Under the pieces are notes generated by a model. The model ran no database searches. It was not told where the DNA came from and saw only the letters and a program-made list of their open reading frames with translations. A stretch of DNA of 64,000 nt, taken from the IMG/VR virus record IMGVR_UViG_3300045988_056849; one strand, written 5' to 3'. A program made the position numbers and the translations under genes. How positions within the stretch are numbered: position 1 is the first letter of the stretch; the number at the start of each line of letters is the position of its first letter. Origin of the DNA: a virus. This document shows positions 9,678-43,350 of the stretch, piece after piece.

Positions 9678-9708
9678 GCTCTGGGCTGCGAAGTTCGGAG
9701 CTTTTTTA
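9678..9708 (+). terminator. rho-independent terminator
   Basis: GCTCTGGGC (9678-9686) pairs with GTTCGGAGC (9693-9701): 9 bp including G:U pairs, then TTTTTT. Confidence 0.6.
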
Positions 9709-9734
9709 TTGGTAAATTATACACCTTTTGCTAA

Positions 9735-20807: not shown

Positions 20808-21257
20808 ATGAAACAAAGAAAAGTAAACATTATCATCAAAGGCTACGGCAAAAAGCCTTTGTATGCGACTTCACATTCAGCAGGAGCTGACTTATATTCA
20901 GCCAACGCTTCGGATATTGTTCTTCAGCCGATGGAACGCAAAATCATTCCCACGGGTTTGTTTTTGGAACTTCCTATTGACGCTGAAGCTCAAATAAGAC
21001 CGAGAAGCGGATTGAGCGCAAAGAAAGGAATTGTAGCAATTCTTGGAACCATTGATGCCGATTATCAAGGAGAAGTTGGTATCATAGTAATTAATCTAAG
21101 CGATGAAGCGTTTGTAATCGAAAGAGGAGAACGACTTGCTCAGATGGTTCTGAATGGAGAAGGAGGATTGTTCCAAGGAGACTGGGTTGAGGTTGAAGAG
21201 TTTTCCAGAGAGAGCGAACGAGGAGCAGGTGGATTTGGACATACAGGTACAAAGTAA
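20808..21257 (+). CDS. dut: trimeric dUTP diphosphatase
   Basis: The five dUTPase motifs: HSAGADLYS, PRSGL, GTIDADYQGEVG, RLAQMV, ERGAGGFGHTG. Confidence 0.9.
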   Translation: MKQRKVNIIIKGYGKKPLYATSHSAGADLYSANASDIVLQPMERKIIPTGLFLELPIDAEAQIRPRSGLSAKKGIVAILGTIDADYQGEVGIIVINLSDEAFVIERGERLAQMVLNGEGGLFQGDWVEVEEFSRESERGAGGFGHTGTK

Positions 21258-22016: not shown

Positions 22017-23946
22017 CAAAATGAAATGTAACGGTATTGATTTGTTAGCAGACTATGTGTTCTTGTCTAAATACTCTCAAAGACGAGAGGATGGACGACT
22101 TGAACACTGGGATGAAACTATTGACCGTATCTACGAGATGCACAAGGTCAAGTTGAAACAGTTAGGTCTGCTTGGTGAAGAAACGGTTGCTATGATAGAA
22201 GAAGCAATGCGTTTGGAAGTTGATAAGAAAATCTTGTCTTCCCAGCGTGGGCGTCAGTTCGCTTCTCCTTCGGTAACGAGTGGAATATTGAAGCATGAAG
22301 CCAAGTTATACAATTGCTGTTCTACCTACGTTGACCGTGTAGAAGTATTCAGCGAAATCATGTATTTGCTTCTTTGTGGTTGCGGCGTTGGTTATTCCTT
22401 ACATAAGGAGTACATTGACAAGCTACCAATAGTCAAGCCGTATAACGGAGACCAAAGACCTCAATTTTTTGTTGAAGATAGTATCGAAGGATGGGCTGAT
22501 TCAATCCGAGAGCTTATGACGGCTCTATTTGAAGGCAAGTCCGCTGATATAGTCTTTGACGCTATCCGACCAGAAGGAGCGTTGATTGACGGTAAGTTCC
22601 TTGCACCTGGCCCAGAGCCGTTAATAAAAGCCCATAATCATATCAAAGAAGTCATGAAAGTCGCTCAAGGCAGAAAGCTCACGAGTATCGAAGTTCATGA
22701 CATTATTTGTTATATAGCCGACAGTGTTGTGAGCGGAGGGGTGAGACGTTCTGCTATGATAGCCTTGTTCGACAAAGACGATGAGTTGATGCTCCGAGCT
22801 AAGACAGGAAGCTGGTGGACGGACAATCCTCAAAGAGCTATGGCAAATAATAGTATTCTTGCTACTCTATCTGACCCACTGGGTTACGAGGAAATGAAAG
22901 ACAAGTTACAAGTTATCCGTCAGTTTGGAGAGCCAGGTTTTGTAAACGTAAAGAGTTTCAAATATACAGTCAACCCTTGCGGTGAGATTGTAATGGAGCC
23001 TGCTATCAACGGCAAGTCTGGATTTGCGTTCTGCAATCTTGTAGAGATAAATGCCGAGCGAGTTAAAACCAAAGAGGAGTTCTTGGAAGCGTGTCGTGTA
23101 GCTTCGTTCGTAGCAACCGTTCAGGCTCTTTATACTGACTTCAAATATCTGTCTCCTGCTTCACGGGAAATAGCCGAGCGTGATAGAGCTATCGGAGTGA
23201 GCATAACAGGCATATATGCCAATCCTATCCTTCGGGGTGAGGTATTAAGAGAAGGTGCGAAGGTAGTTTCAGAAACCAATGCGGAATGGGCAGCAATATT
23301 CGGTATAAATAAGAGCCGTACTTGTACGACAATTAAACCGAGCGGCAATGCTTCTTCTATTCTTGGTTTGTATTGTAGTGGCATTCATCCAGCTCATGCT
23401 GAAAAATATCTGCGTAGAGTTCGCATCAAAACTTATAGCCCAGAGTTCCTTGCTTTGAAAGATACTCCGTTGGTAAAAGTTCTACGAGGGGATGAGGCTG
23501 TGATAAGTTTCCCAATTGAGTCTGATGACCCGAATATGATATTCAAAGACGAGGTATCATCCGTTGAGCATCTCAAGTTTATCGGTATGGTAAAACATTA
23601 TTGGATAAACAAAGGAAGCGTTAATACCAAAGCCGTTGCTAACAATATATCCGCAACCGTTGAGGTGAAAGATGATGAGTGGGACGAAGTAGCAGCTGTT
23701 CTGTTTACCAACGATTATCTATTCACTGGCGTGAGCTTGTTACCGAAGATGGGCGACCAAATTTATGACAACGCTCCATTCCAACGTTTATCTTCCTCAG
23801 AAGTCGAAAGTGAGTACAATGCTATCAAAGAGTATCTTGATACCCACGAAGTAGATTTCAACGAGATAATGAGCGACCGTGAGAACTTCTATTCAGGCGA
23901 CATGGTAGCCGTAGGATGTTCGGGAGGAGCCTGTGAATTGAAATAG
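22009..23946 (+). CDS. nrdJ: class II (adenosylcobalamin-dependent) ribonucleotide reductase
   Basis: Active-site loop TVNPCGEIVMEP, TTIKPSGNAS, C-terminal redox tail GCSGGACELK. 645 aa. Confidence 0.8.
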   Translation: MINKMKCNGIDLLADYVFLSKYSQRREDGRLEHWDETIDRIYEMHKVKLKQLGLLGEETVAMIEEAMRLEVDKKILSSQRGRQFASPSVTSGILKHEAKLYNCCSTYVDRVEVFSEIMYLLLCGCGVGYSLHKEYIDKLPIVKPYNGDQRPQFFVEDSIEGWADSIRELMTALFEGKSADIVFDAIRPEGALIDGKFLAPGPEPLIKAHNHIKEVMKVAQGRKLTSIEVHDIICYIADSVVSGGVRRSAMIALFDKDDELMLRAKTGSWWTDNPQRAMANNSILATLSDPLGYEEMKDKLQVIRQFGEPGFVNVKSFKYTVNPCGEIVMEPAINGKSGFAFCNLVEINAERVKTKEEFLEACRVASFVATVQALYTDFKYLSPASREIAERDRAIGVSITGIYANPILRGEVLREGAKVVSETNAEWAAIFGINKSRTCTTIKPSGNASSILGLYCSGIHPAHAEKYLRRVRIKTYSPEFLALKDTPLVKVLRGDEAVISFPIESDDPNMIFKDEVSSVEHLKFIGMVKHYWINKGSVNTKAVANNISATVEVKDDEWDEVAAVLFTNDYLFTGVSLLPKMGDQIYDNAPFQRLSSSEVESEYNAIKEYLDTHEVDFNEIMSDRENFYSGDMVAVGCSGGACELK

Positions 23947-26885: not shown

Positions 26886-27650
26886 ATGTCGGGAATAATT
26901 TACAAATTCACTATAATGAGCAGTTTTAGATATTTCGGTCATAAGCCGTTCTATGTAGGACAATTTATGCGGGATGTTTCAAAAGAACAATTTTTGAGAA
27001 ATGATTGTTTTGTATACGATGGTAGCGGTAAGACTTGGGAAAGATTTTGTAAAGGACTCAAAAGAAAGTTTCCAACCTGCTGGCGTAAACTAATCAAACG
27101 AGAAGTCTTGTTTTATTCAGAGAATTGTTCGCAGAAGGCTCTTGATAGAATGGAAGAGTATTTCATCAAACATGAGAAGTCTCATTACTCATACGAGGTA
27201 GGCGGTTGCAACATACTATGGGGAACTGCTAACAAGTTCGGTTCTGGAAGTCCTATGAAAGACCCAATGATTGCGGCTAAAGTTACTAAGCAATTACGAG
27301 GAAGAAGAGGAGCAAAAAGGTCAGAAGAAGGTAAGCGAAACATGTCTATTGCTGCTAAAAGGTCATGGGAGAATGCAAATAAGCGCAGAAGGTTAATTTC
27401 AAAGTCTATGTCTTCATATATGCAGAACGGAGGAAAGGAACATTTGTCCAGAGTTAAGAAAGGAAGAAAGTTCAGCGATGAACATAGAAGGAACATTGCT
27501 TTGAATCATGCTGATATTAGCGGTAAAAATCATCCTTGTTACGGTAAGCATTTCAAATGGATAACAAATGGTTTAGTGGAACAAAGATTGGATGAAGGCA
27601 AATCAATTCCTGAAGGTTTTCAATACGGTAGAATTAAATACAAGAAGTAA
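26886..27650 (+). CDS. free-standing GIY-YIG homing endonuclease with NUMOD3-like repeats
   Basis: GIIYKFT...KPFYVGQ (GIY...YVG) N-terminal motif. C-terminal repeats GSGSPMKDP, RGRRGAKRSEEGKRNMS, KGRKFSDEHRRNI, SGKNHPCYGK. Confidence 0.65.
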   Translation: MSGIIYKFTIMSSFRYFGHKPFYVGQFMRDVSKEQFLRNDCFVYDGSGKTWERFCKGLKRKFPTCWRKLIKREVLFYSENCSQKALDRMEEYFIKHEKSHYSYEVGGCNILWGTANKFGSGSPMKDPMIAAKVTKQLRGRRGAKRSEEGKRNMSIAAKRSWENANKRRRLISKSMSSYMQNGGKEHLSRVKKGRKFSDEHRRNIALNHADISGKNHPCYGKHFKWITNGLVEQRLDEGKSIPEGFQYGRIKYKK

Positions 27651-29922: not shown

Positions 29923-31077
29923 ATGTTTGAACAAGCAGCATGGTATGATAAGCTCCCAAACGAGAGCTTGGAAGTGTACGAGCCTCATTTGAGATTATTC
30001 TTTGAGACTATGTACGAGCGACAAATGATTTGGAAACGTAGGTTCATAGACAAGAAGGAAAGACCTTGGACAGACAACAAGATATTCCAAGAGTCAAAAT
30101 TCACGAACGTGTACCGAGAACTTGACCGAAACAGTCAATGGCAAATCAAAAACATTCTTCTTGATGAAAGTCTTTCTTTGAAGAACTTGGTTTGGAAGAT
30201 GATGGTTTTCCGTTTCTTCAACAATCCTGAAACATTCGAGTTTGAACCGAAGGGAAAGAGCGTTCAACCCAGTCTATTCGGAGCACCTATCAAATCAGGA
30301 CTTAAACAAGCTCAATCTATGGACGAGCTTATTTCAGCCAAGAAATGGAAGAATGGTATTCCCGATTGGGAGGAGTATGACGAAGATGAATTCAGTCGTT
30401 TCATTGCGGGCGTTCGGAGTTCGGGTCAAAATCCATATACAACCGCTTACTTGATAAACTCTCAAGCAACACCTGGTCAGCCGAGAGATTATTGTTACAC
30501 AAGGGTTGTAATACCTCACCTGCATAAGAACGTAGGAAAGCTCATTGCTACGGTGATGAAAGCTAAAAGACCAGAAGATATTATTGAGTATCTGAAAACC
30601 TTCCCTGCGGTGGCGGATTTTATTGCTCATGAGTTCTATCAGGACTTCACATATATACCGAGATATACCAACCGTAAATTTATGAAGTTTGACCAAAACG
30701 ACTTCACGAACGTTGGGCCAGGTTGTAGTATAGGCATACGCCTTATTTATCCGAGCTTGAAAACTGTAAGAGAGCAAAAACAAGCTATCTACTGGTTGAA
30801 GGAAGCAGCAACCGAATGGCTTGAGAAAATTGGTAAAGAGAAGGGTGAGCCGTTTCCGTATCTTGATTGGGACAAAGAGAGTGGAGAATATTACACTTTC
30901 AGTCGCCAAGAGTATGAGGAAGATGAATTGAACCGTGATGTGCTATATACTGAAATAACCCTTCACCAGATTGAGATGTGGTTATGCGAGTTCCAGAAAT
31001 ATTGGAAGATGATTATTGGAGAAGGCAAACAGCGCAGCAAATTTCAACCGAGAAGCAAATCAATTATTTCAAAATAA
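29923..31077 (+). CDS. alpha-glutamyl/putrescinyl thymine pyrophosphorylase (aGPT-Pplase)-like DNA base hypermodification protein
   Basis: N-terminal signature YERQMIWKRRFIDKKERPWTDNKIFQESKFTNVYRELDRNSQWQIKNIL. This matches the ER..I..R....PWT.D.I....KFTN.YRE.DR.SQ core I recall for this family. Recognition by eye only. Confidence 0.55.
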   Translation: MFEQAAWYDKLPNESLEVYEPHLRLFFETMYERQMIWKRRFIDKKERPWTDNKIFQESKFTNVYRELDRNSQWQIKNILLDESLSLKNLVWKMMVFRFFNNPETFEFEPKGKSVQPSLFGAPIKSGLKQAQSMDELISAKKWKNGIPDWEEYDEDEFSRFIAGVRSSGQNPYTTAYLINSQATPGQPRDYCYTRVVIPHLHKNVGKLIATVMKAKRPEDIIEYLKTFPAVADFIAHEFYQDFTYIPRYTNRKFMKFDQNDFTNVGPGCSIGIRLIYPSLKTVREQKQAIYWLKEAATEWLEKIGKEKGEPFPYLDWDKESGEYYTFSRQEYEEDELNRDVLYTEITLHQIEMWLCEFQKYWKMIIGEGKQRSKFQPRSKSIISK

Positions 31078-31079: not shown

Positions 31080-32129
31080 ATGGACAAGAAATTAACAGAA
31101 TTTTTTGAGAAGAAAGAATTTGAGGTTGTAGAAAAGAAAACTACAACCCAAGTTCTTATTCAGAACTTACTTGCGTTCAGTGTACGTGAGAAGAAGGGAG
31201 GGTTGTTTGATATTTCAATCAACATAGTAAAGGACGAAGAAGAAAAGGAGAAGCTGAGAAAGCGTATCAACCGTGAAGGCTCTTCGGAGAACGAAGGTTG
31301 GAACATTGACTTTGAGAAAACTCCGATACTTCACAACGTAACGATAAGCCAATTTGAAGCCTTCTGTAAGCAAACTAAGCTCATTGCTCAGGTGAAACGT
31401 CTTTCGGAGTTCCGAGAGGTACAGAGCGACTTCACGTTGGCAGTAGCAGAAAAGGACGGCAAAACTTTGAAGTGGCGTTCAAACCTTCCTACGGAGAAGC
31501 ATATTGTTGATGCTGTATTCAAAGGCAGCGAGTACACTCACCGTTCAGTAGGTTTGGGCGGTTTAACTCTTACCAAGAAAGACGTTGTATTGGACTTGGG
31601 TGGTAATATCGGAGCTTTCACTTGCGACATCTTCGATAAAGTCAAAAAGGTCATTGTATTTGAACCTGAAGATGTGAACTATGAATTTCTATCTACGAAT
31701 ATAGAAGACAACGGAGCAAAGAACGTAATTGCCCACAAACAAGCCGTAGTTGGTAATGACGATAAGGTGCGTGACTTCTATCTGGGTAAAGCTCCGTATT
31801 ATTATTCATTCTTGGTAAAACATAACCGCAAGCGAGTTCCTGTTGAGTGCGTGAATATCAACGAGGTTATGAAGAAGTACAACCCTACCAAGATGAAGGT
31901 TGATATTGAAGGCTCTGAATGGGAAGTTCTTATCAACTGCACGGACTTCGGGAATGTTGACCAGATAATCTTTGAGTACAACTTCGATATGAATATGGAC
32001 TTGAAAGAGGACTTCAAGCGGTTCAAGGCTCTTCGGAAACATCTCAAGAAACACGGCTTTGACGTTCAGGAGATGGAGCGAGATATGAAGCAGAATTGGA
32101 ATTTGGTTTTCATGGTAACAAAGAAATAA
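31080..32129 (+). CDS. FkbM-family SAM-dependent methyltransferase with an uncharacterised ~170-aa N-terminal extension
   Basis: VLDLGGNIGAFT (SAM motif I), VIVFEPEDVNYEFLSTNIEDNG, MKVDIEGSEWEVL. Start moved to ATG 31080, 3 nt after the upstream stop. Confidence 0.75.
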   Translation: MDKKLTEFFEKKEFEVVEKKTTTQVLIQNLLAFSVREKKGGLFDISINIVKDEEEKEKLRKRINREGSSENEGWNIDFEKTPILHNVTISQFEAFCKQTKLIAQVKRLSEFREVQSDFTLAVAEKDGKTLKWRSNLPTEKHIVDAVFKGSEYTHRSVGLGGLTLTKKDVVLDLGGNIGAFTCDIFDKVKKVIVFEPEDVNYEFLSTNIEDNGAKNVIAHKQAVVGNDDKVRDFYLGKAPYYYSFLVKHNRKRVPVECVNINEVMKKYNPTKMKVDIEGSEWEVLINCTDFGNVDQIIFEYNFDMNMDLKEDFKRFKALRKHLKKHGFDVQEMERDMKQNWNLVFMVTKK

Positions 32130-33647: not shown

Positions 33648-33671
33648 GAAACAAGAAGTCAAATGAAGAAA

Positions 33672-33700
33672 GGAGGGCATTGAAAAATGTTCTCCTTTTT
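33672..33700 (+). terminator. rho-independent terminator
   Basis: GGAGGGCAT (33672-33680) pairs with ATGTTCTCC (33687-33695): 9 bp including 2 G:U, loop TGAAAA, then TTTTT. Confidence 0.7.
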
Positions 33701-33717
33701 ATTTGTTTACACATTTT

Positions 33718-33727
33718 ACAGTTATAG
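33718..33727 (+). promoter_or_regulatory. ACAGTTATAG box, copy 5
   Basis: Exact 10-mer, 33 nt upstream of the portal ATG 33761 and 17 nt after the terminator. Confidence 0.6.
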
Positions 33728-33760
33728 GATATTCAAATGTAAAATTGATTTCAATATAGT

Positions 33761-35494
33761 ATGGGTAATTCATATGCTAAACAGTTAGATGCCATTGCTC
33801 TTGCAGAAGCGAAGCTGAAGGCAAAAAGGTTTAGGACACTTGAGAAAGCTCTAAGGTCAGACTCACCAGAGGATATGATAAAGGCTACTCAGGTGTTCAA
33901 CCAAATTCAGCCAAAAGTGGAGCAAAATACAAAGGCATTTTTCATTGACCCATTGGAGTTCAATTCCAATTTAGGGTACAAAGATAAGCCGTTTTCATTG
34001 ACGTACACTACGTTGAAGAGAATGTCGAAGACACCTATCATAAATTCAATTATCAAAACAAGAAAGAATCAAGTAGCAGACTTCGCAGAGCCTCAAGAAA
34101 ACAAGTATTCAACTGGCTTCGTTATCCGAAAGAAACCGAAATTTGGAATTGAACAAAAGATGGATAACAAAGACCGAAAGATTGCGTATGCTATTACTGA
34201 ATTTATCTTGAAGGGCGGTAATGTTAGTCAATGGGAGCATGACGACTTCGATACGTTTATCAGAAAGATTGTTGATGACTCTTTGACTTACGACCAATTA
34301 ACTTTCGAGTGTATTCGCAACCGAAGAGGACAATTGGAGAGTTTCATGGCTACTGATGCCGCAACTTTCCGAATGGCTGATTCATACTTTGATAAGGATT
34401 ATGATAATGTTTTCTTCCAAAGAAACGGAGCGAATGTATGGCAAGATAGGAACGATTATGGGCCAAAGGTTTATGGCTATTATCCTGCTTATGTTCAGGT
34501 GTATCAGAATGTCAAGGTCAATGAGTTCTATCCTTGGGAGCTTTGTTTTGGAGTTCGCAATCCTTCTACTTCAATATACTCAAATGGGTATGGTTGTTCC
34601 GAGCTTGAAGAGCTTATCAACGTTGTAACATCTATGCTTTGGGGAGATGAATACAATAGACGTTTCTTCAGTCAAGGTTCAGCTCCGAAAGGTTTATTGC
34701 GTATTAAGGGAACAAACAACGAAGCAGCACTTCAGCAATTCAAACAACAGTGGCAGTCCATGATTACAGGAGTAATGCAGTCTTGGAAAACTCCTGTCGT
34801 GGAAGCGGACGTGGATTGGATAGACCTTCAGAAGAACAACCGTGATATGGAGTATAGTTCTTGGATGGAATATCTTATCAAACTATCTTGTGCCATATAT
34901 TCAATTGACCCTTCCGAGATAGGATGGGACATCAGCCGTTCTTCGGGGAACGGAGGATTGTTTGAAGGAAGTCAGGAACAACGCCTGAAACATTCCAAAG
35001 ACAAGGGTTTGTATCCACTTCTGAAATTCCTTCAGAGGAAAATCAACAAATATATCATTGAGCAAATCAATCCTGATTTTGAACTTGTATTCGTAGGTTT
35101 GAACGGCTTGACTATCGAAGAAGAGCTTGATATGGACATCAAGAAAGTAGGCAGCTTCATGACCGTAAACGAAGCACGTGAGAAATACGAGATGAAACCG
35201 CTTGAGTTCGGAGACGTACCGACCAATGCTACTCTTATTCAGAACAAGAATGCGGAGATGATGGCTAAACAAGGTGGTCAAGGAATGGAGATGGATGAGA
35301 ACGGAAACATCAAACCGAGTTCCGAGAAGAAAGGAGAGGAGCCTGACGCAGAAGAGGAAGATGAGGAGCAAAATCCTTTTGACTTGTATGCCGAAGAAAA
35401 TGACGAGGAGGACACTAATAAGGGTGGACTGAGAGAAACGTTTGTAAAAGCATTTGATAACTTTCTAAATAACGAAGAAAATGGAAGTAACTAA
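33761..35494 (+). CDS. portal protein
   Basis: 577 aa with an acidic C-terminal tail. It heads the morphogenesis block and lies upstream of a MuF-like gene. Called on size and synteny plus general resemblance to portals, not on a diagnostic motif. Confidence 0.6.
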   Translation: MGNSYAKQLDAIALAEAKLKAKRFRTLEKALRSDSPEDMIKATQVFNQIQPKVEQNTKAFFIDPLEFNSNLGYKDKPFSLTYTTLKRMSKTPIINSIIKTRKNQVADFAEPQENKYSTGFVIRKKPKFGIEQKMDNKDRKIAYAITEFILKGGNVSQWEHDDFDTFIRKIVDDSLTYDQLTFECIRNRRGQLESFMATDAATFRMADSYFDKDYDNVFFQRNGANVWQDRNDYGPKVYGYYPAYVQVYQNVKVNEFYPWELCFGVRNPSTSIYSNGYGCSELEELINVVTSMLWGDEYNRRFFSQGSAPKGLLRIKGTNNEAALQQFKQQWQSMITGVMQSWKTPVVEADVDWIDLQKNNRDMEYSSWMEYLIKLSCAIYSIDPSEIGWDISRSSGNGGLFEGSQEQRLKHSKDKGLYPLLKFLQRKINKYIIEQINPDFELVFVGLNGLTIEEELDMDIKKVGSFMTVNEAREKYEMKPLEFGDVPTNATLIQNKNAEMMAKQGGQGMEMDENGNIKPSSEKKGEEPDAEEEDEEQNPFDLYAEENDEEDTNKGGLRETFVKAFDNFLNNEENGSN

Positions 35495-35735
35495 GAAAGA
35501 TGCGCCAATAGTGCGCACGTTTAGCGAGTATTTGCCTGAACCTTTCATTGACGAAGTTTCGGCAGATGAAAAGTATTACGGTTGGGCACCTATGGGAACT
35601 GCTGAAACCGATAACGGTTGGCGTATCATGAAAGAGACGAAGGACGGAACTGTTACCAAGAGAGAGTACGCTCAAGGAACAATGGACTTCATCTCAGCTT
35701 GGAGTGAACGTGCTACTTATAACTATTCAAGATAA
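35481..35735 (+). CDS. hypothetical protein (84 aa)
   Basis: Overlaps the portal stop by 14 nt. Confidence 0.45.
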   Translation: MEVTKKDAPIVRTFSEYLPEPFIDEVSADEKYYGWAPMGTAETDNGWRIMKETKDGTVTKREYAQGTMDFISAWSERATYNYSR

Positions 35736-35741
35736 TAGATT

Positions 35742-37628
35742 ATGGCAGGGAATACTAAAAATTTGGGGCAGGTTGCTGGTGTATATATCGGCAACACTCC
35801 GCCTGAAAACATAATTCTGATTTGGTATGATAATACTCCGAGTCAGATGCGACATAAGATATACGACCCAGGATTGAGTCAGTGGGTAGTTCTTGACCAG
35901 AACGTTATCTCATTGATTACTTATTCCGAGTTGGTAAACATCGCAAAGAATGTCGGTCTGTCTATCGGTCAGTATTTCCAAATCAAGGATAAAGGAAATG
36001 CTTTGGCTCTTGCTATCACAACGACCAAAGTGCAGTATGATGATGAATTGGGTAATATCCTGATTGACGATTTGGGTACCAATATTCAATATCACGTAAC
36101 TTCTTCCAATCTTTTGGTAGATGACGTTGCGGGTGTATTCGATACGGTAAACAAAAAGCTGGTATTCCAATTCAAAGAAATGGTTCCCGACTTTACTGCT
36201 GATGATTACATCATGGGTAAGGTTCAGCGTAACAACGTTTGGAGCCTTGCTAAGTATCGGTTGTCTTCTTTCTTATCGAAGGTAACTGGTAACTCAATCA
36301 GTTGGAATGGAGGCTTCTTCTTTAATTTCGGTGATGCTTTGAAAGCTCAGCTGGATAAGAAAGGAGGAGTTGTTGCCAAAGACACCTACGATACGGATAT
36401 GCAGAAGGTCAATCAAGACATAGCAAACGTAGGTAAAGCAAATCAACAGATTATAGATAATGCTAACAAAGCAATAACTGATGCAACGTCTGATACGGCT
36501 ATCTACGCCAAAAAGTCTCCTGCGTTAGAAACAGGAGGAGAGCCGACCGATGCAGCAAAAGGAGACAGCTTGTTAACAATCTTGTCTAAGTTTCAGAGAT
36601 ACATCACACGTTTCAAGTATGCAACTGGTATTCGAGTATCTCAAGACTTCACTGATGCCGTACAACCAGAATACGTCAATAACAATGATACTGTTGACTC
36701 TGCGCTCAGAAAGATACAGTACTGGTTAAAGAATGCTGGTACGGGCAGTAAACTATCACCTGATTGGACTCCGAAGGACTATGCAGGAACCATAGCCGAT
36801 GTAGCAGGTGGAGATAGTCTTGACGAAGCATTTGCGAAGGCTATCGGAAAACTGAATCAGATTGGTACTATATCGAACGGTCAAGTGCGTTCAAAGGCAA
36901 CTACTTCGGGCGGTACAAGTAGAACTATTTTCAATTTAGCTTCTGCAATTCTTTCTTTTTATAGAGATGGTACAAGTGGACATAATGTTTCTCTGAGTTC
37001 ATCTTCTGGTTTGAGTATAAAGGATTCAAATAATTATGGATTGGTAGCTAATGGAGATGGTTTAGATTTTCAATCACAAACACAGCAAATTTTTGATATT
37101 CCTGCTTATGAAAAAAGCGGTTTAAGTAATGTTTACGGAGGAGCTTCTGCTTTGTATAGAGGTAGAGCGATTTCAACAGCACCTGGATATGCTTCATTAG
37201 GTATTATTTCCGCTTTATCAGCTGTTTGTAATTGGAACGGTTTAACTCCTTCGGGGGGGTATCAAGTATTTGATGCTTATTTTGCTAATTTCAAAGCTGG
37301 AGGGCTGTCTCTTGGACTTATTCATTTATCGTCCACTGACCTTTACTTGGATACCGATTGTTCTTTTGTTAGCTGCACAAACAGCGAAAATAAAAACGTA
37401 TTTTTGCCAGCTGACCCGCATGATGGACAATTGATTATTGTAAATCAAGTGAACTCTGCTAATATTGCGGTACATGGAAATGGACGTAGAATTTGTGATA
37501 ATACTAATGTAGATTCAGTGAATATTGGTTCTGCAAGAAGCTGTGGAATTTTTGTATTTAATCCTAATATTGCTACTGACCCTGGTTATAAATGGGGAAT
37601 GTGGGTATTTGAACGTTGGAACAGATAA
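35742..37628 (+). CDS. tail fibre / receptor-binding-like protein
   Basis: N-terminus NLGQVAGVYIGNTPPENIILIWYDNTP...WVVLD resembles fibre N-termini. Long Gly/Ser/Asn-rich beta-type C-terminal region. Confidence 0.45.
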   Translation: MAGNTKNLGQVAGVYIGNTPPENIILIWYDNTPSQMRHKIYDPGLSQWVVLDQNVISLITYSELVNIAKNVGLSIGQYFQIKDKGNALALAITTTKVQYDDELGNILIDDLGTNIQYHVTSSNLLVDDVAGVFDTVNKKLVFQFKEMVPDFTADDYIMGKVQRNNVWSLAKYRLSSFLSKVTGNSISWNGGFFFNFGDALKAQLDKKGGVVAKDTYDTDMQKVNQDIANVGKANQQIIDNANKAITDATSDTAIYAKKSPALETGGEPTDAAKGDSLLTILSKFQRYITRFKYATGIRVSQDFTDAVQPEYVNNNDTVDSALRKIQYWLKNAGTGSKLSPDWTPKDYAGTIADVAGGDSLDEAFAKAIGKLNQIGTISNGQVRSKATTSGGTSRTIFNLASAILSFYRDGTSGHNVSLSSSSGLSIKDSNNYGLVANGDGLDFQSQTQQIFDIPAYEKSGLSNVYGGASALYRGRAISTAPGYASLGIISALSAVCNWNGLTPSGGYQVFDAYFANFKAGGLSLGLIHLSSTDLYLDTDCSFVSCTNSENKNVFLPADPHDGQLIIVNQVNSANIAVHGNGRRICDNTNVDSVNIGSARSCGIFVFNPNIATDPGYKWGMWVFERWNR

Positions 37629-37630
37629 AT

Positions 37631-38215
37631 ATGAAAGCAAAAATTATAAGCCGTTATTCAGTCAAAGTGATTGATTACGACATAGAAAAACAAAAAGCTG
37701 ATAATCTTTATAAGGCTACTTTGCAAGAAAAAGAAATTGGCGATGAGTTCATAAAACCTATTCTTGCTAAAAAAGAAGAAAAGAGAACGGAAAGTGATTT
37801 GATTAAAATTATTCTTCGCAAAGAATTGGAAGATAATTATAAAAACAAACTTGATGAACTTTCAGCTTTCAAAGAATATGTTCCTTCAGAATTTTTCGGT
37901 GAAATTGATGATACAGATTCAGTAAGACCGTATTACATTGAAGAAGGCGAATCAATTTTGCAAAAATGGGAGGTGGTAAAAAAAGATGTAGGCAAGATAA
38001 ACGAAAAAATAAAATCTTTGAAGGAGAAGTTATCAGAAGGAGATTATAAAGTAATCAAAATATATGAAGCTAAATTAGCCAACAAAGATGAACCATACAG
38101 TCAAACTGATGAAGAAGAGTTTATAAAAGAAAGACAATCAATACGTGATGAAATCAATCGTTTAGAAGCTCTTTTGCCAAACAGCGGAACAATAAAAGAA
38201 ATGACGCAAAAATAA
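37631..38215 (+). CDS. coiled-coil protein, possible fibre assembly factor
   Basis: ATG 3 nt after the fibre stop. K/E-rich heptad-like sequence. Called on position only. Confidence 0.45.
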   Translation: MKAKIISRYSVKVIDYDIEKQKADNLYKATLQEKEIGDEFIKPILAKKEEKRTESDLIKIILRKELEDNYKNKLDELSAFKEYVPSEFFGEIDDTDSVRPYYIEEGESILQKWEVVKKDVGKINEKIKSLKEKLSEGDYKVIKIYEAKLANKDEPYSQTDEEEFIKERQSIRDEINRLEALLPNSGTIKEMTQK

Positions 38216-38220
38216 TAGCC

Positions 38221-38796
38221 ATGTGTAAGATAGTTTATTTAACGTCCAAACGTTTCGATAAGCCTGCTAACGAGTTCAAGAAGGCACTCGCAAAGGAGCT
38301 ACGGAAACGAAACGTTGAAGTTGTGGTAGATAGTTCGTATGATGTATTTAACTTCTTCCGCAAGCATAAAACGTATGGGATAGCACTTGCTTTTGATTTC
38401 TATCGAGATGGACAGCAAGGAGCAGGGCTGACGCTAAATAAAAATTGTTCTTACATTGGCAGAGACTTTGCTTACAATTTATCAAACGCCTATGACGTTT
38501 TAACTCCGATAACGAAGTGGAGAGACTTTCAGTTTGTTGATTCTCACGACCGAGAATGGTTCAAGTTTTTCAATAAAGTCAGTTCTTCTACGAAAGCGAT
38601 ATTTTATTTGTGCACGTACACCAATGACTCCGACCGTGAAGAGTTCTACGTTGTATATGATAAAGTCATTCAGCTTTTCGCAGATGAGATTGTAAGGTGT
38701 CTCCGTTCTGATTATAATACAGAAGATTACAGAAAGAGGGTAAAACTTGCTAAATTAAAAACTAACAAAGTAAAAAGGCATGGAATGGTTATCTGA
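38221..38796 (+). CDS. hypothetical protein, possibly a degenerate Amidase_3-like fold
   Basis: Collinear resemblance to the MurNAc-L-Ala amidase layout (KIVYLTS..., LAKELRKRNVEV, IALAFDFYRDG, FAYNLSNA, AIFYLCTYTND), but the Zn-ligand His/Glu positions are not conserved. Confidence 0.3.
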   Translation: MCKIVYLTSKRFDKPANEFKKALAKELRKRNVEVVVDSSYDVFNFFRKHKTYGIALAFDFYRDGQQGAGLTLNKNCSYIGRDFAYNLSNAYDVLTPITKWRDFQFVDSHDREWFKFFNKVSSSTKAIFYLCTYTNDSDREEFYVVYDKVIQLFADEIVRCLRSDYNTEDYRKRVKLAKLKTNKVKRHGMVI

Positions 38797-39268
38797 AAAT
38801 CTGTTTGGGCTTATATCTTTGTTGTTTGGAGCAGGCGGTATTGGCTTTGCTGTAATTTCTAAGATACTGGACAGGAAGAAGTATGAGCAGGAAGTAAGAA
38901 CTGCTTCAGCAGAAGCCGATATGAAAGGCGATGACTTTTGGAAGAAGCGGTATGACGTTCTTCAGAAAGAGGTTGAAAACAAAGACAGCTGGTGGAAGGA
39001 GAGATATGATACATTGTATAACGAGTACCAAAATGAAAGAAAGTTAAGCAATGAAATTGTTAAGTCTTTCCGCACAGAGTTAAATGAGATGAGAAGTGAC
39101 TACGATAAACAACGAGAGCTTGAAAAGATGAAATATGACAAGCTCATGGAACAGTATCGTAGTTTCGAGGAAGAAAGTCAGAAGCGTGAGCACGAGTACA
39201 AACAACGTATTTCGCAACTTGAAAATTTGGTTGCTTCTTACGAACAAAGATTAAAGACAAATGAATAA
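38780..39268 (+). CDS. N-terminally anchored coiled-coil membrane protein
   Basis: TM segment LFGLISLLFGAGGIGFAVISKIL, then a long K/E/R coiled coil. Confidence 0.5.
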   Translation: MEWLSENLFGLISLLFGAGGIGFAVISKILDRKKYEQEVRTASAEADMKGDDFWKKRYDVLQKEVENKDSWWKERYDTLYNEYQNERKLSNEIVKSFRTELNEMRSDYDKQRELEKMKYDKLMEQYRSFEEESQKREHEYKQRISQLENLVASYEQRLKTNE

Positions 39269-39833
39269 AAGCATAACCATATCTATCGGAGGACTTATTG
39301 CAATAGGCATAGCGTTATTGATAGGTTACTTTTGGGGCAGGTCAAGTGTAGAACTACCGCAACCGAAAAGGATTGTTGAGGTCAAATGGGTAAAGGGAGA
39401 CATTGTAAGAGATACAATTGACCGTCCAGTTCCTTATGAAGTCAAAGTTCCCGTTGACCGTCCAGTCTTTGTTCCTACGGATACAGCTGCGTTATTTGCT
39501 ATATGGCAAGATTATTACTTGGACAGAAAGTATGCTTTGGACTTTTCTAATGATAGTTTGGGTACATTTAAGGTTGATGCTTTGGTGAGTCAAAATAAGC
39601 TCATTTCTGCCACTTCTTTTATTCAGCCGAATATCCGAACGGTTACGGAAAGAGAAGTCATATACAAAGTTCCTACGTTACAACCGTGGGCAATGTTAGG
39701 TACGTCAGCCGACTTCCGAACGAATAAGCTACAATTTGGACTTGATATCAAAAATAAGTACATTATTGGACTTTCGGGAATAAGGCTGGATGACCGATAC
39801 GGATATACAATTGATTTTGGAATAAAATTTTAG
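39261..39833 (+). CDS. N-terminally anchored membrane protein
   Basis: TM segment ITISIGGLIAIGIALLIGYFWG. Confidence 0.5.
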   Translation: MNKSITISIGGLIAIGIALLIGYFWGRSSVELPQPKRIVEVKWVKGDIVRDTIDRPVPYEVKVPVDRPVFVPTDTAALFAIWQDYYLDRKYALDFSNDSLGTFKVDALVSQNKLISATSFIQPNIRTVTEREVIYKVPTLQPWAMLGTSADFRTNKLQFGLDIKNKYIIGLSGIRLDDRYGYTIDFGIKF

Positions 39834-39836
39834 CAT

Positions 39837-40022
39837 ATGGCAAAGAAGGAGACAAAACATAGTCATTTCATTCCTTCCCCATTCCCAGTCGTTACCGAGT
39901 ATGAAAATGCTTTTGTGAAGTCTTGGAATGAAAATACCGCAAATGCAGTTGCAGAAGTCCTGAAATATATGGCTCAAGCAACTGCTTCTGCTATTAAAGA
40001 AACTAAGGAGGAGAAGAAATGA
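39837..40022 (+). CDS. hypothetical protein (61 aa)
   Basis: Short ORF in operon context. Confidence 0.4.
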   Translation: MAKKETKHSHFIPSPFPVVTEYENAFVKSWNENTANAVAEVLKYMAQATASAIKETKEEKK

Positions 40023-40228
40023 AAAAGATTAAACACTTTGGTAAATGGTTATTGACCGTAGTCATTACCGTTCTTTATTTGGTAACATTCTTTTGGGTAG
40101 GACATGTATTGTACTATCTATCGAAGGTGTTCAAAATTATCGGACATACGTTCATGCTTGAGTTCGCTTCGGCAAAAGACGAGTTAAGAACGTTTTGGAA
40201 ACATTATACAAATTTAGGAGACATATGA
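40019..40228 (+). CDS. small membrane protein (holin-like size)
   Basis: ATGA overlap. TM segment WLLTVVITVLYLVTFFWVGHVLYYL. Confidence 0.45.
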   Translation: MKKIKHFGKWLLTVVITVLYLVTFFWVGHVLYYLSKVFKIIGHTFMLEFASAKDELRTFWKHYTNLGDI

Positions 40229-41157
40229 TTTTCAATCAAGGACAGATACAAGATATGTTATCAATTCTCAAAAGGTACGAATTGGTATTCATAGCAGGTC
40301 AGTTAGGATTGGATTATCTTTCTCAATCGGATAAGGATATACTGATTGCTGCTGGAATCAATCTTGATAAGTATAAGAACAAGAAAGGAGTAATTGAGCA
40401 CGCATTCCTTTTCGGTATATTGGCTGAGGCTATCGGGGATGCGAGAGCAAAGAAAATGACTTATGCTCAGTTTCAGAAGTTTCTTGCTTCGGGTAATTTC
40501 ATACCGCTTACCGAAGAAGAGGAGTTTGCCCTTCAAACCGTAAAGAATAGAGCATACACCGACATCACCAGTTTAGGAAACCGAATGAGGACTGGGTTGA
40601 GTAACGTAGTATTGAGAAATAATCAACAACAGACTCTGGTAGTTCAGAATATGATTAAGCAAAAGACTATCAAAGCCGTTGAACTCCGTATGGGAGCGAG
40701 AGGACTTGCGGCAGACCTTGCCGAGACTTCTCAGGATTGGGAAGTTGATTGGTTGAGAATTGCTTACTATCTTACCCACGAAGCCTATAATTCAGGACGT
40801 GCTCAGAGTATCTTGAAAGAGTACGGAGCTGATGCTGAGGTTTATTTCGATGTTTACCCAGGTGCTTGTCAGCGTTGTCGGGAGCTTTACTTGACTGACC
40901 CTGAAGACCCAGATAGCGAGCCGATTGTTTTCAAACTCAAAGATATTATTGCTAATGGTAACAATATCGGGCGAAAGGTTAAGGAGTGGAAGCCGACTAT
41001 TTCACCAACTCACCCTTATTGTCGTTGTACGATAAATCACAAGAAAGCAGGTTTTGCTTGGGATGCAGAGCTGAGAGCCTTCACCAAACCTATCAAGAAA
41101 ACTTCCACTAATCCAAAGTTAAAAGGAGTGAAGTTGAATATAAAAGTATCGAAATAA
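40225..41157 (+). CDS. MuF / SPP1 gp7-like minor head (head morphogenesis) protein
   Basis: C-terminal signature YPGACQRCRELYL ... ISPTHPYCRCT. ATGA overlap start at 40225. Confidence 0.7.
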   Translation: MIFNQGQIQDMLSILKRYELVFIAGQLGLDYLSQSDKDILIAAGINLDKYKNKKGVIEHAFLFGILAEAIGDARAKKMTYAQFQKFLASGNFIPLTEEEEFALQTVKNRAYTDITSLGNRMRTGLSNVVLRNNQQQTLVVQNMIKQKTIKAVELRMGARGLAADLAETSQDWEVDWLRIAYYLTHEAYNSGRAQSILKEYGADAEVYFDVYPGACQRCRELYLTDPEDPDSEPIVFKLKDIIANGNNIGRKVKEWKPTISPTHPYCRCTINHKKAGFAWDAELRAFTKPIKKTSTNPKLKGVKLNIKVSK

Positions 41158-41165
41158 GATTGTAA

Positions 41166-41843
41166 ATGAAAACTGAAAAATTGTTACTCATCCAGCCGCA
41201 TAGTGATGATATTCTCTTTTGTTGTTCTCATCTGCTGTTCCTTCCTCAATACGAGGTTCAGGTGCTGACCGTAGAGAATGACCCAAAGAGAATAGCGGAG
41301 GATGAAAAATTGTTTGATTTTCTCAATATTCCGTTCCATCATCTTGAATTAGATTTTCATGATGAAAGTTATTACGAGTTCCATAAGAATTACAAAGAAG
41401 TAACGGTGGAAGCAACGTATAAACATTTGAATGAATACTTCGGGAGGGAAACGCTGAACGAGATTGAGGAAACGCTTGTAAATTGGGTTAGAAAGTTCTT
41501 GAAAAAGAACAAAGGGTACACGGTGGTAGCTCCTTGGGGAGTTGGTCACCCATTTCATCTTTTCGTTCGGGAGACTTTACAAGGAGCGTTGAGTTACATG
41601 GAGTATTATCGGGAGTTCCCTCACTCCTATAAAAGACGTTCTCAACCTCAAGTAGAGAAACAAAAGCAAGAATACACTCTGAAACGTTCCGTAACAGTTG
41701 AGGAGTTTCATGAAGTGAAGTGGAAACTTGCTTCCAAATTCTATCGTTCTCAATCAGGTTTACAGTTCTACGAACAGGGTTATATTAAGAAACAGCTGCC
41801 CGAAGAGATATATGTGAGGGAAGCGGATGAATTACCATTTTGA
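41166..41843 (+). CDS. PIG-L/LmbE-family de-N-acetylase
   Basis: LLLIQPHSDDILF (AHPDD-type motif), RIAEDEKLFDFLNIPFHHLELDFHDES, WGVGHPFHLF (HxxH). Confidence 0.65.
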   Translation: MKTEKLLLIQPHSDDILFCCSHLLFLPQYEVQVLTVENDPKRIAEDEKLFDFLNIPFHHLELDFHDESYYEFHKNYKEVTVEATYKHLNEYFGRETLNEIEETLVNWVRKFLKKNKGYTVVAPWGVGHPFHLFVRETLQGALSYMEYYREFPHSYKRRSQPQVEKQKQEYTLKRSVTVEEFHEVKWKLASKFYRSQSGLQFYEQGYIKKQLPEEIYVREADELPF

Positions 41844-41844
41844 T

Positions 41845-43296
41845 ATGAAGATATTTATTGCTGATTTTCAGATAGCGAAATATGGCGGTATTGTAGAATA
41901 TGTTGCCAGTATGCTCAAAGCGTTCCGAGATTTGGGACACGAAGTAGATGTTGCTCAAATGACTCCTGCTTCTACTACCCAGAACGCTTATAACAAGAAA
42001 GTGAAAGAATTTGAAAGCGGAGAACATCAACGCAAGATTAAGTTCCATTCTCAGGCAGGAGGTTACGAGAAAGATGAAGTAACAGGTTATTGGCGCAATA
42101 ACTATTATGGATATTTCTTGCCTCCAAGTAACCGTATCGGAGTATATGAGAAGAATGCGGTTGAGAGGTGGAAGGAGCTGGTGAAGGATGCTGATATAAT
42201 TCTTTGGAATTTCATGCCCACGAAAAGTTCTGCTTGGAATAAGAAGGGCGTGGAGTTCGATTTTTGGCATAAGTTCTTTGACCTTCCTTCTTCGATTAAA
42301 CAAGTGTTCTTGGTACACGATGCTTATTTCAATGTAAGAGCTTCCAATATATCGGCTCTGAAAGATAAGATAATGTTTATGGCTTGTGCTCATTTAGCTG
42401 CTTATCAATGCTGTTCTGAAATAGGTATTCCGAGAAGTTTGCTATTGAATCCACGATACCTACCCAGCGGAGCTAAGATGACCGTGAAGATGATGAATAA
42501 ACGCAAGGAGGACTTTTTTGCTGCTCATATGTTTAAGTCTATGAAGCATATGGAGGAGCTGATTGCTGCCGTTCCGTATATTCAGAAGGGAGAGGAGGAA
42601 CGTTTCAAAGTAAAGATTGCTGGGACAGGCATAGAATATAACTATATGACCAGCGAGACGAAAACAAAGAGTAACTATATGTGTACTACGAAGCGTGACC
42701 CAGACCTTCCGAAGAAACTTGACGGCAAACTTTCTCTTTGGGATAGAGCCGAGAAGTTTGGAATGGAGTACATGGGTCAGATGTCGGGCGGTGAAGTTAT
42801 AGATACTTTGAGAAATACGAAGTTTGCTATTGACCCATCTTGGGCTGAACATTATGCACGTTATTGTCGTACCCATATAAACGGCTTTATTATCGAAGCG
42901 ATGTTATGCGGTGCTTATCCTGTTTTGCGTGATTATAGAGGACTGGCGAAGGTGGAAGGAAAGGAAATATATGACCCACTATTCGAGAACGTCAGAGCAA
43001 TCATTATTCCGTGGGATGCTACTCCGAAAGAATTTGCTGAGGCTTTGAAAAAGGCTGCTAAAATGTCTCCTGCTAAATTCTTGAAAGATACAAAGTACAA
43101 CTTTGAGTTAGTACACGAATTGTTTAATGCTACGAAGAATGCCGAAGAGATAATCAGACTGGTTAAAGGAGGAAGAAAGCTGGTAAGGAAAGAACTTGAA
43201 AAAGGCAAAGACTCACCGAATGTTAAGAAGATAACTCATGAAATCATGGAAGAGTTTTATCATATAGAACTTCCAATTGAGTGGGAAACGGATTGA
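41845..43296 (+). CDS. GT-B fold (GT4-like) glycosyltransferase
   Basis: N-terminus MKIFIADFQIAKYGGIVEYVASMLKAFRDLGHEVDV. C-terminal sugar-donor region NGFIIEAMLCGAYPVLRD. Start at ATG 41845, 2 nt after the upstream stop. Confidence 0.65.
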   Translation: MKIFIADFQIAKYGGIVEYVASMLKAFRDLGHEVDVAQMTPASTTQNAYNKKVKEFESGEHQRKIKFHSQAGGYEKDEVTGYWRNNYYGYFLPPSNRIGVYEKNAVERWKELVKDADIILWNFMPTKSSAWNKKGVEFDFWHKFFDLPSSIKQVFLVHDAYFNVRASNISALKDKIMFMACAHLAAYQCCSEIGIPRSLLLNPRYLPSGAKMTVKMMNKRKEDFFAAHMFKSMKHMEELIAAVPYIQKGEEERFKVKIAGTGIEYNYMTSETKTKSNYMCTTKRDPDLPKKLDGKLSLWDRAEKFGMEYMGQMSGGEVIDTLRNTKFAIDPSWAEHYARYCRTHINGFIIEAMLCGAYPVLRDYRGLAKVEGKEIYDPLFENVRAIIIPWDATPKEFAEALKKAAKMSPAKFLKDTKYNFELVHELFNATKNAEEIIRLVKGGRKLVRKELEKGKDSPNVKKITHEIMEEFYHIELPIEWETD

Positions 43297-43350
43297 CGCA
43301 GTTATTATCTTTATCATAATGTTAATCATGTAAAATAAACATAATGAATT

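Follow-up and report, generated by a model that had tools for sequence, protein, structure and literature searches.

A predicted glycosyltransferase and deacetylase pair associated with thymidine-hypermodification genes in a gut-metagenome phage

The IMG/VR record IMGVR_UViG_3300045988_056849 was analyzed as a single 64,000-nucleotide stretch of viral DNA, referred to here as the window, and the analysis centered on two neighboring genes encoding a predicted sugar N-deacetylase (DA) and a glycosyltransferase (GT) (Table 1). With a probability of about 60%, we propose that the two enzymes modify DNA, GT transferring an N-acetylhexosamine (HexNAc) and DA then removing the N-acetyl group in the course of post-replicative thymidine hypermodification. 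The proposal draws on the families of DA, GT, a 5-hydroxymethyl-dU DNA kinase (5-HMUDK), and a methyltransferase, on the strict co-occurrence of these genes in related phages, on the exchange of GT-B and TAGT glycosyltransferases beside DA, on gene fusions, and on a contiguous cluster in the relative L118. An earlier note on the same DNA, made from the letters alone, had named three possible targets for the pair, namely, capsid or portal proteins, packaged DNA, and host envelope glycans; the comparative data presented here favor packaged DNA and do not favor the other two.

Thymidine-hypermodification genes of the same phage

Approximately 10 kb upstream of DA and GT, in the same window, lies a gene that the earlier note had missed and that, judged by its sequence, encodes a bona fide 5-HMUDK. 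The product matched the Pfam family HMUDK_hel (PF18723) with an E value of 8.3e-49 and 166.9 bits (gathering score, 25), and in tblastn comparisons with ViI-like phage genes it shared ∼25% identity across 93% of its length. Kinases of this type phosphorylate 5-hydroxymethyl-dU (5-hmdU) in polymeric DNA, which is the entry point of all characterized thymidine hypermodification pathways (PMC5889632; PMC8989533). The S-adenosylmethionine (SAM)-dependent methyltransferase encoded next to the kinase was identified by both Pfam (Methyltransf_21; E value, 6.4e-9) and NCBIfam (fkbM_fam; E value, 4.9e-19) and is orthologous (53% identity) to a gene that in the relative L033 adjoins a DA::TAGT fusion. 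We infer that the dUTPase or dCTP-deaminase-like enzyme of the window probably supplies dUMP for a hydroxymethylase.

Copies of the genome of this phage species, pieced together from IMG/VR contigs, carry, beyond the window, a thymidylate-synthase homolog of 416 aa (L015:5877-7124; PF00303; E value, 1.2e-24) directly upstream of the gene for a DNA polymerase III alpha subunit (1196 aa). The homolog scored far under the NCBIfam equivalog cut-offs for thymidylate synthase. Set against an Escherichia coli ThyA sequence, it appears to keep the catalytic Cys and the equivalent of the uracil-specifying Asn177, with His147 changed to Asn and a C-terminal extension of ∼130 aa that has no ThyA counterpart. 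It is a candidate dUMP hydroxymethylase, its sequence fitting a hydroxymethylase or a methylase alike. Because 5-HMUDK, the thymidylate-synthase homolog, and a dUTPase are all encoded, the phage probably has 5-hmdU in place of T and alters this base further.

Family assignment of DA and GT

The earlier note had placed DA in the PIG-L family and GT among GT4-like enzymes on the strength of short motifs. Both open reading frames (ORFs) and all of the quoted motifs are present, the start of the second gene 2 nt after the first fits, and the comparisons below bear out both families, each protein being a remote member.

DA carries the motifs IQPHSDD (residues 9 to 15) and HPFH (residues 128 to 131), the latter where LmbE enzymes carry HPDH. 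A search with DA as a single sequence gave 13.8 bits (E value, 0.088) for Pfam PIG-L (PF02585), below the gathering score of 28.2; across the family, PIG-L was the only recurrent Pfam match, being found for 27 of 30 members, and the best E value among the 30 homologs was 5.4e-4. No NCBIfam match and no PHROGs family were identified for DA, and only noise was returned when the single sequence or the family profile was searched against PDB sequences. Homologs of DA (254 with an E value of ≤1e-3) came almost entirely from metagenomic contigs of about 90 to 125 kb, and a search of the family profile against 1.84 billion representatives yielded 281 relatives. The family alignment was compared with A3, an alignment of 41 distant DA relatives, using hhalign (probability, 99.9%; E value, 1e-34). 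PIG-L was matched by 20 of the 41 members of A3 (best E value, 4e-14), and against PDB the A3 profile identified Dbv21 (2.5e-13), Orf2* (1.8e-12), and diacetylchitobiose deacetylase (4e-5), so that solved LmbE enzymes were reached only via this second, more distant alignment.

Residues P11, H12, S13, D14, D15, G125, H128, P129, and H131 were invariant in the 30 DA homologs. The distant set of 41 likewise shows no variation in PHxDD or in the second His of HxxH, with GxxHxxH conserved to at least 90% at its Gly and first His. By analogy with MshB, the motif residues would serve as metal ligands and catalytic base. In the AF2 model of DA (pLDDT, 94.9) the two motifs directly follow strands 4-10 and 118-123, and Foldseek comparison of the model with BFVD returned viral models annotated as LmbE/PIG-L (E values, 3.4e-8, 2e-5, and 4.8e-3; TM scores, 0.47 to 0.56). 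Taken together, these weak but consistent similarities point to DA as a divergent member of the LmbE superfamily, outside any characterized subfamily. Foldseek against PDB returned only generic Rossmann-like folds (E value, ∼1e-2), among them CARF domains and halves of UDP-GlcNAc 2-epimerase; the CARF or epimerase identity that these raise was rejected in view of the profile chain and the motifs, together with the matches in BFVD. As a lesson of method, the negative outcome of Foldseek against PDB would, taken by itself, have led to a false rejection of the family call.

For GT, the ATG at 41845 is supported as the start codon because all homologs are about 483 aa in length; the mechanical ORF opens at 41827. 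The DA gene ends with a TGA at 41841-41843, and GT begins 1 nt beyond it, a gap that suggests translational coupling. GT carries the sequences KYGGIVEYV, GHEV, and FIIEAMLCGAYPV. Its 358 homologs with an E value of ≤1e-3 were almost all on metagenomic contigs of about 90 to 125 kb, and the mean column identity of the GT family was 77%; the conservation of both DA and GT is well above what chance would give. The N-terminal, glycine-rich KYGG loop (G14 and G15) and E351 of FIIEAM are invariant, the roles of these residues being read by analogy. GT is basic (pI 8.9) without a hydrophobic segment, and both GT and DA are soluble proteins, properties that would suit action on DNA.

Structural comparison established, at the level of the AF2 model (pLDDT, 82.6), that GT has a GT-B fold of the GT4-like type. 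Foldseek identified 201 PDB matches with an E value of ≤1e-3, and the best 50 were almost all GT-B enzymes. The leading group (E values, 5e-9 to 1e-7) was made up of PimA (4.6e-9), archaeal glycogen synthase, the DNA-bound T4 alpha-glucosyltransferase (1.7e-8), BshA, TarM, SdgB, and MshA, and GtfA and VldE were also among the matches. The Pfam matches were all below threshold: 20.6 of 26.4 bits for Glycos_transf_1, 21.1 of 27 for Glyco_trans_1_4, and 18.4 of 28.5 for Glyco_transf_4. Precomputed matches to PF00534 or PF13439 were found on a few GT homologs. GT had no NCBIfam match and no PHROGs family, its PDB sequence and profile searches returned only noise, and it did not match TAGT (PF20691), its fold being GT-B. 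Judged solely from the obligate LmbE partner, and by analogy, the donor used by GT would be an N-acetylated amino sugar.

Related loci and partner exchange

A census of 80 portal-anchored IMG/VR loci was assembled, in which the portal proteins were 62 to 100% identical. All 63 loci whose upstream flank reaches 4 kb or more have the kinase gene. Of the 56 loci with a full downstream flank, 54 have DA, and the remaining two break off before the DA position is reached. Among the DA-positive loci (n = 56), a GT-B enzyme accompanied DA in 38 and a TAGT enzyme (PF20691) in 16; in the remaining 2 the sequence ends right after DA. DA always has a glycosyltransferase neighbor, the family of which varies. 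Because DA is kept while GT-B and TAGT exchange, the pattern argues for one shared acceptor chemistry. The earlier note had proposed surveying related phages for this gene neighborhood; in the census, the kinase and DA occur together wherever the flanks allow, and the glycosyltransferase family beside DA varies. In most clades a radical SAM/SPASM gene lies upstream of DA; it is absent there in the window clade, which has the FkbM methyltransferase.

Two further arrangements place DA with DNA-modification genes. In L033 and L034, the order is MuF-like gene (64% identical), radical SAM gene, FkbM methyltransferase gene, DA::TAGT fusion, homologs of the 655-aa and 790-aa genes that follow GT in the window, and endolysin gene, so that the modification genes occupy the same locus as DA and GT, between the same flanking genes. 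That DA and TAGT form a single fused protein was confirmed in one relative. In L118 and L119 (portal 45% identical; 12 contigs), a contiguous cluster lies just upstream of the portal gene and encodes, in order, an amino-acid:DNA transferase (AADT/ADDT), DA (37% identical), a 94-aa ORF, a radical SAM/SPASM protein, TAGT, a 117-aa ORF, and 5-HMUDK, followed by the portal. The L118 amino-acid:DNA transferase matched PF18724 with 28.2 bits (gathering score, 26.2).

Fusions were found at several distances from DA. Close relatives are fused to radical SAM/SPASM (P0243) or TAGT (P0248) domains, and among more distant LmbE domains the fusion partners are TAGT (P0331), GT4 (P0361, P0365, and P0384), GT5 (P0372 and P0375), or methyltransferases. 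In an unrelated phage (L035), an independent TAGT::PIG-L fusion has replication genes around it and lies four genes downstream of ThyX. Transfer of a HexNAc followed by unmasking of the amine, the two-step logic put forward in the earlier note, is still the most economical reading of a glycosyltransferase paired with an LmbE protein, and these LmbE-glycosyltransferase fusions reinforce it.

Among the 50,697 records of cultured phages, blastn with positions 40000 to 47700 found no relative at the DNA level, and tblastn with GT and DA likewise gave zero matches. The nearest cultured relatives by capsid, including DAC16, have no detectable homolog of GT, DA, or the kinase. Since all three genes are missing alike from these capsid relatives, a link between the pair and the DNA pathway is supported.

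Other variation was observed within these loci. In L001 and L002 (GT 84% identical), genes for GroES (Cpn10) and GroEL (Cpn60) separate DA from GT (7906-9809), with a radical SAM/SPASM gene ahead of DA, so that the close adjacency of the pair in the window is not universal. In L073 and L075 to L077 (at ∼509) and L094 (at ∼1302), a TAGT-like gene, 32% identical to the TAGT domain of P0248, lies ∼8 to 9.5 kb upstream of the portal gene. Two of these loci, L075 and L076, have the downstream flank, and they carry this TAGT-like gene upstream together with DA and a GT-B enzyme downstream; such a genome encodes glycosyltransferases of two different folds, which could possibly yield a disaccharide product. 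Upstream of the L118 cluster (463-4043) are genes for a class I methyltransferase, a fragment of a DegT/DnrJ/EryC1-type sugar aminotransferase, and a Stealth_CR2-like protein (subthreshold), which hints at a more elaborate sugar chemistry in that clade. Finally, an unrelated phage with a DNA polymerase of the pol A type (L117, 8965-19803) carries, flanked by DNA polymerase and topoisomerase genes, a block encoding a GT1 enzyme, a DA-like LmbE protein, and a methyltransferase and, after these, a fusion of PEP mutase with a cytidylyltransferase, a probable phosphonopyruvate decarboxylase of the TPP enzyme type, an epimerase, and a nucleotidyltransferase. The block looks like a phosphonate-sugar tailoring cluster, conceivably for another DNA or glycan modification.

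Proposed pathway

In the pathway proposed here, the dUMP-specific thymidylate-synthase homolog would supply 5-hm-dUMP, and 5-hmdU would take the place of T during replication. After replication, 5-HMUDK and other enzymes of the module would act on the polymer. The GT-B enzyme would move an N-acetyl-hexosamine, in the simplest case GlcNAc from host UDP-GlcNAc, onto a hydroxyl of the 5-hmdU-derived base, and DA, as an LmbE-type zinc amidohydrolase, would strip the N-acetyl group, so that a free amine able to take up a proton is left in the major groove. The FkbM methyltransferase may tailor the product further, as may the radical SAM/SPASM enzyme in most sister clades. The sugar could be placed on plain 5-hmdU in parallel with the kinase branch, on a kinase-dependent substituent, or via a phosphate. 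The expected benefits would be that the DNA escapes restriction and CRISPR nucleases and that its charge is neutralized for packaging. From the gene associations described above we infer that DNA accepts the sugar, and likewise the kind of sugar, the atom that receives it, and where the kinase stands in the series of steps. A more detailed formulation, held tentatively and at somewhat less than even odds, specifies the product as a thymidine-derived base bearing a free-amine hexosamine, possibly methylated, that is made by GT-B or TAGT enzymes acting interchangeably and then by an LmbE/PIG-L deacetylase.

Published work on phage glycosyltransferases lends weight to DNA as the target. TAGT enzymes have been shown to glycosylate 5hmC in DNA, with Glc or GlcNAc transferred in vitro (PMC8256090). 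Proven DNA arabinosyltransferases are GT-B enzymes with BshA, MshA, and PimA as PDB/Foldseek neighbors (PMC13326640); because GT shares these neighbors, a DNA target is favored, and it is further supported because T4 alpha-glucosyltransferase is among the top structural matches of GT.

A number of observations weigh against the proposed role in DNA modification. Its support consists of gene association throughout, and within the clade co-occurrence is uninformative on linkage, since every member carries all of the genes. DA and GT lie ∼10 kb from the kinase in the window clade and are probably, to judge from the hairpins described below, in the transcription unit of the portal, MuF-like, and lysis genes, not in that of the kinase. 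An amino-acid:DNA transferase was not found in the window phage, either by Pfam searches of ORFs of unknown function or by tblastn with the L118 enzyme, so that the proposal does not account for the role of the kinase. Foldseek of the DA model against PDB gave no match below an E value of 9e-3 and no LmbE structure among the best 50; because of this discordant result, DA is filed at the superfamily level only. GT has an invariant Thr343 where the GT4 EX7E motif has its first Glu, and its structural neighbors include SdgB and GtfA, which are protein O-GlcNAc transferases. TAGT enzymes are not exclusively DNA directed either, the human homolog GREB1 reportedly O-GlcNAcylating a protein (PMC7968844).

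Alternative explanations

DNA could be the target of a different chemistry, in which the GT-B enzyme replaces the amino-acid:DNA transferase or DA hydrolyzes a non-sugar amide on the base. GT-B enzymes also include phosphorylases, the pseudo-glycosyltransferase VldE is among the Foldseek matches of GT, and the window phage has the kinase yet no detectable AADT/ADDT, all of which would suit such a chemistry. In one variant, GT would couple a sugar or other nucleophile to 5-phosphomethyl-dU, either by phosphate displacement or as a phosphodiester-linked sugar of the SP-15 type; the Stealth-like gene of L118, whose family comprises sugar-1-phosphate transferases, lies ∼6 kb upstream of the cluster, and the thymidine modifications of SP-15 and Carin-5 are described as phosphorylated and then glycosylated (PMC12686479). 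An N-acetylated thymidine modification, 5-acetylaminomethyl-dU, also has a precedent in PaMx11 (PMC8989533). We nevertheless regard these chemistries, the variant included, as rather unlikely: the LmbE clade is repeatedly fused or adjacent to TAGT, GT4, and GT5 domains, which would make a sugar amide the likely substrate of DA, and L118 carries both ADDT and TAGT, so that the glycosyltransferase is no substitute there.

The position of the pair bears on a quite improbable alternative, O-glycosylation of capsid, portal, or tail proteins by GT with HexNAc and trimming to hexosamine by DA. Mycobacteriophages glycosylate capsid and tail proteins and encode glycosyltransferases beside structural genes, and DA and GT are probably cotranscribed with late structural genes, since the plus strand from 33700 to 48823 has no long terminator-like hairpin; the protein-modifying activities of SdgB, GtfA, and GREB1 noted above would also fit. 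The earlier note had described the pair as embedded in a head-morphogenesis operon, and DA and GT do lie between the portal and MuF-like genes on one side and the protease and major head protein genes on the other, but the virion target or special placement implied by this did not hold up, as DA in L118 is upstream of the portal gene in a cluster with the kinase and the DNA transferase. The interval itself is a mosaic, not a purely morphogenetic operon, because it contains, besides DA and GT, a GH108 endolysin gene, and in relatives homing endonuclease, GroES/GroEL, radical SAM enzyme, and methyltransferase genes as well. Moreover, the methyltransferase found beside DA::TAGT in L033 has its window counterpart next to the DNA kinase, and the TAGT::PIG-L fusion of another phage is located among replication genes.

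Action on the host or on a small molecule is very unlikely. The pair might modify envelope glycans (capsule, lipopolysaccharide [LPS], or peptidoglycan precursors) for superinfection exclusion or make a GlcN metabolite in the manner of BshA/BshB or MshA/MshB. A GT4 enzyme with an LmbE enzyme is the canonical pair of the bacillithiol, mycothiol, aminoglycoside, and glycosylphosphatidylinositol (GPI) pathways, and BshA and MshA are among the structural matches of GT. The authors of the DLP3 genome proposed LPS modification for its BshA-like glycosyltransferase (PMC7326821). Against this, no BshC- or MshC-like ligase, membrane protein, flippase, or lipid-carrier enzyme and no integrase were seen in the phage regions examined, and in relatives the partners are DNA-modification enzymes (kinase, ADDT, and TAGT).

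Comparison with known systems

The closest pathway context for the proposed DNA modification is provided by the 5-hmdU/5-HMUDK/amino-acid:DNA transferase systems of M6, ViI, PhiW-14, SP10, and PaMx11 (PMC5889632; PMC8989533). Shared with these are the kinase family, a thymidylate-synthase homolog beside the polymerase gene, radical SAM enzymes in sister clades, the ADDT of the L118 cluster, and the modular, post-replicative logic. They append amino acids or polyamines, whereas the window phage has a constant glycosyltransferase and LmbE deacetylase and no detectable ADDT; the words "glycosyltransferase" and "deacetylase" are both absent from the text of PMC8989533.

Phage DNA glycosyltransferases include T4 alpha- and beta-glucosyltransferase, TAGT and GT-B enzymes acting on 5hmC, and arabinosyltransferases acting on 5-hydroxycytosine (PMC8256090; bioRxiv 10.1101/2023.12.21.572611; PMC13326640). 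GT resembles them in its GT-B fold and in its neighbors T4 alpha-glucosyltransferase, BshA, MshA, and PimA, and TAGT enzymes stand in for it in sister clades. The known enzymes differ in acting on cytosine-derived bases, no sequence-level relationship between them and GT was detected (tblastn, 50,697 phage records), and the main texts of the three papers contain no deacetylase step, the word itself turning up only in the title of one reference. In kinetoplastids, base J (beta-D-glucosyl-hydroxymethyluracil) is likewise a glycosylated 5-hmU in DNA, and its glucosyltransferase, JGT, is structurally related to phage GT-A/TAGT enzymes; unlike the system proposed here, it is eukaryotic, its hmU comes from JBP dioxygenases, its sugar is glucose, and there is no deacetylation.

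Transfer of GlcNAc followed by deacetylation is carried out by MshA/MshB, BshA/BshB, PIG-A/PIG-L, BtrM/BtrD, and, in glycopeptide synthesis, GtfA/B with Orf2*/Dbv21. DA and GT share the two-enzyme logic, DA keeps the Zn-ligand and catalytic motifs, and the solved enzymes nearest in sequence to the DA clade, Dbv21 and Orf2*, remove the acetyl group from GlcNAc carried by a bulky aglycone. In contrast to these pairs, DA and GT have DNA-modifying enzymes as partners in place of thiol, antibiotic, or GPI genes, fall under the curated Pfam and NCBIfam cut-offs, and show the change from HPDH to HPFH in DA.

The earlier note knew of no described phage system with this placement, which overstates the case, since GT-B DNA glycosyltransferases (PMC13326640), Carin-5 (PMC12686479), and DLP3 (PMC7326821) precede it, as does virion glycosylation in mycobacteriophages by glycosyltransferases from structural modules. 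SP-15, YerA41, and Carin-5 have thymidine-derived bases with sugars, possibly including GlcNAc, and oligosaccharide-modified thymidine in Carin-5 goes with a gene block that contains glycosyltransferases and a GlcNAc-N-deacetylase-like protein (PMC12686479). That deacetylase, unlike DA, bears the annotation polysaccharide deacetylase, not PIG-L, and the linker is a (di)hydroxypentyl group; these phages belong to other hosts and lineages, and PMC12686479 mentions no 5-HMUDK. The cultured Stenotrophomonas phages DLP3 and DLP5 are annotated with a PIG-L deacetylase, a 482-aa BshA-like glycosyltransferase, and a methyltransferase (PMC7326821); they differ in having NDP-sugar tailoring genes (the set has WcaG and WecE) that are absent from the window phage, and their proteins have no BLAST similarity to those of the window. 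A link between this PIG-L-carrying DLP3 and the "DLP3" of PMC13326640 was dropped, the latter being an Acinetobacter phage.

Gene layout and other features of the window

The window is a co-linear segment of a phage genome with every gene on the plus strand (Table 1), and no tRNA genes were detected in it. The encoded tail sheath, HK97-type protease, and major head protein (phrog_752) identify a contractile-tailed virus, and the major head protein is 45% identical to those of Bacteroides phages DAC16 to DAC23. The exact GT protein was indexed in 167 blocks of an assembly collection, and the phage is common in human gut metagenomes. It belongs to a widespread human-gut clade with genomes of roughly 100 kb and, probably, Bacteroidota hosts. 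A scan for sigma-70 promoters was set aside, as that consensus is not meaningful for a probable Bacteroidota phage.

Table 1. Coordinates of selected features in the 64,000-nucleotide window
Feature	Coordinates	Strand	Description
dUTPase / dCTP-deaminase-like enzyme	20808..21257	+	Pfam dUTPase 3.2e-28
5-Hydroxymethyl-dU DNA kinase (5-HMUDK)	29923..31077	+	Pfam HMUDK_hel, PF18723
FkbM-family SAM methyltransferase	31080..32129	+	349 aa, Pfam and NCBIfam
Terminator-like hairpin just upstream of portal gene	33667..33700	+	Consensus scan
Portal	33761	+	
MuF-like gene	40225-41157	+	
DA	41166..41843	+	225 aa, divergent PIG-L/LmbE-family zinc amidohydrolase, predicted sugar N-deacetylase
GT	41845..43296	+	483 aa, GT-B fold (GT4-like) glycosyltransferase
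Terminator-like hairpin after lysis genes	48823..48858	+	Consensus scan
Protease	48848	+	
Major head protein	50410	+	

The MuF-like label had no HMM support and has motif resemblance as its sole basis. Both terminator-like hairpins have 15-pair stems followed by T-rich tails, and the plus strand between them is without a comparably long hairpin. They possibly bracket a long late transcription unit containing DA and GT, of which the downstream hairpin may be the end.

Downstream of GT are genes for a 655-aa protein (43351-45318) and a 790-aa protein (45321-47693), which are 32 to 51% identical among relatives and adjoin DA/GT or DA::TAGT in every relative examined. Neither protein had a Pfam, NCBIfam, or PDB match, and the label of virion-cargo enzymes given to them in the earlier note was not confirmed by any family match. 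A P-loop-like GGAGIGKS motif occurs in the 655-aa protein, whose only match was phrog_1250 (unknown function). Both may be candidates for a role in the modification pathway. Elsewhere in the window, a ferritin/rubrerythrin-like protein (21396-22016) is followed by a 645-aa protein (22009-23946) that matched a PHROG ribonucleotide reductase (RNR) family (E value, 1.3e-109) and, only marginally, the Pfam RNR barrel; the two are probably a divergent RNR pair. GIY-YIG/NUMOD3 homing endonuclease genes were identified in the window (26886-27650), L005 (8743-9321), L007 (2559-3155), and L009 (4845-5534 and 8498-9163). In L005 the gene is inserted between the MuF-like gene and DA, and such insertions explain much of the gene-order variation among close relatives.

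Implications

Known thymidine hypermodifications are amino-acid or polyamine adducts, and in known DNA glycosylations the sugar is mostly neutral or acidic and sits on a derivative of cytosine. With a de-N-acetylated amino sugar, a thymidine derivative would gain a positive charge along with steric shielding. The system would be a variant on DNA glycosylation and thymidine hypermodification and not a new category, a view that is purely genomic so far. No description of an LmbE/PIG-L deacetylase within a 5-HMUDK or DNA-glycosylation pathway was found in 7.7 million PMC papers and bioRxiv, the nearest items being the Carin-5 gene block and the DLP3 set. If the proposed DNA modification is correct, DA would be the first LmbE-family enzyme acting on DNA, its product would be the first amino-sugar nucleobase, and a deacetylase would be added to the enzyme classes that work on polymeric DNA. 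The 5-HMUDK pathway would be joined to glycosylation, and phages would be seen to swap unrelated glycosyltransferase folds inside one pathway. Hypermodification lets phage DNA defeat restriction enzymes and CRISPR nucleases, skews sequencing, and supplies enzymes for labeling DNA; a modification of the kind proposed here could thus bear on phage-host dynamics in the Bacteroidota and on sequencing bias in the gut virome.

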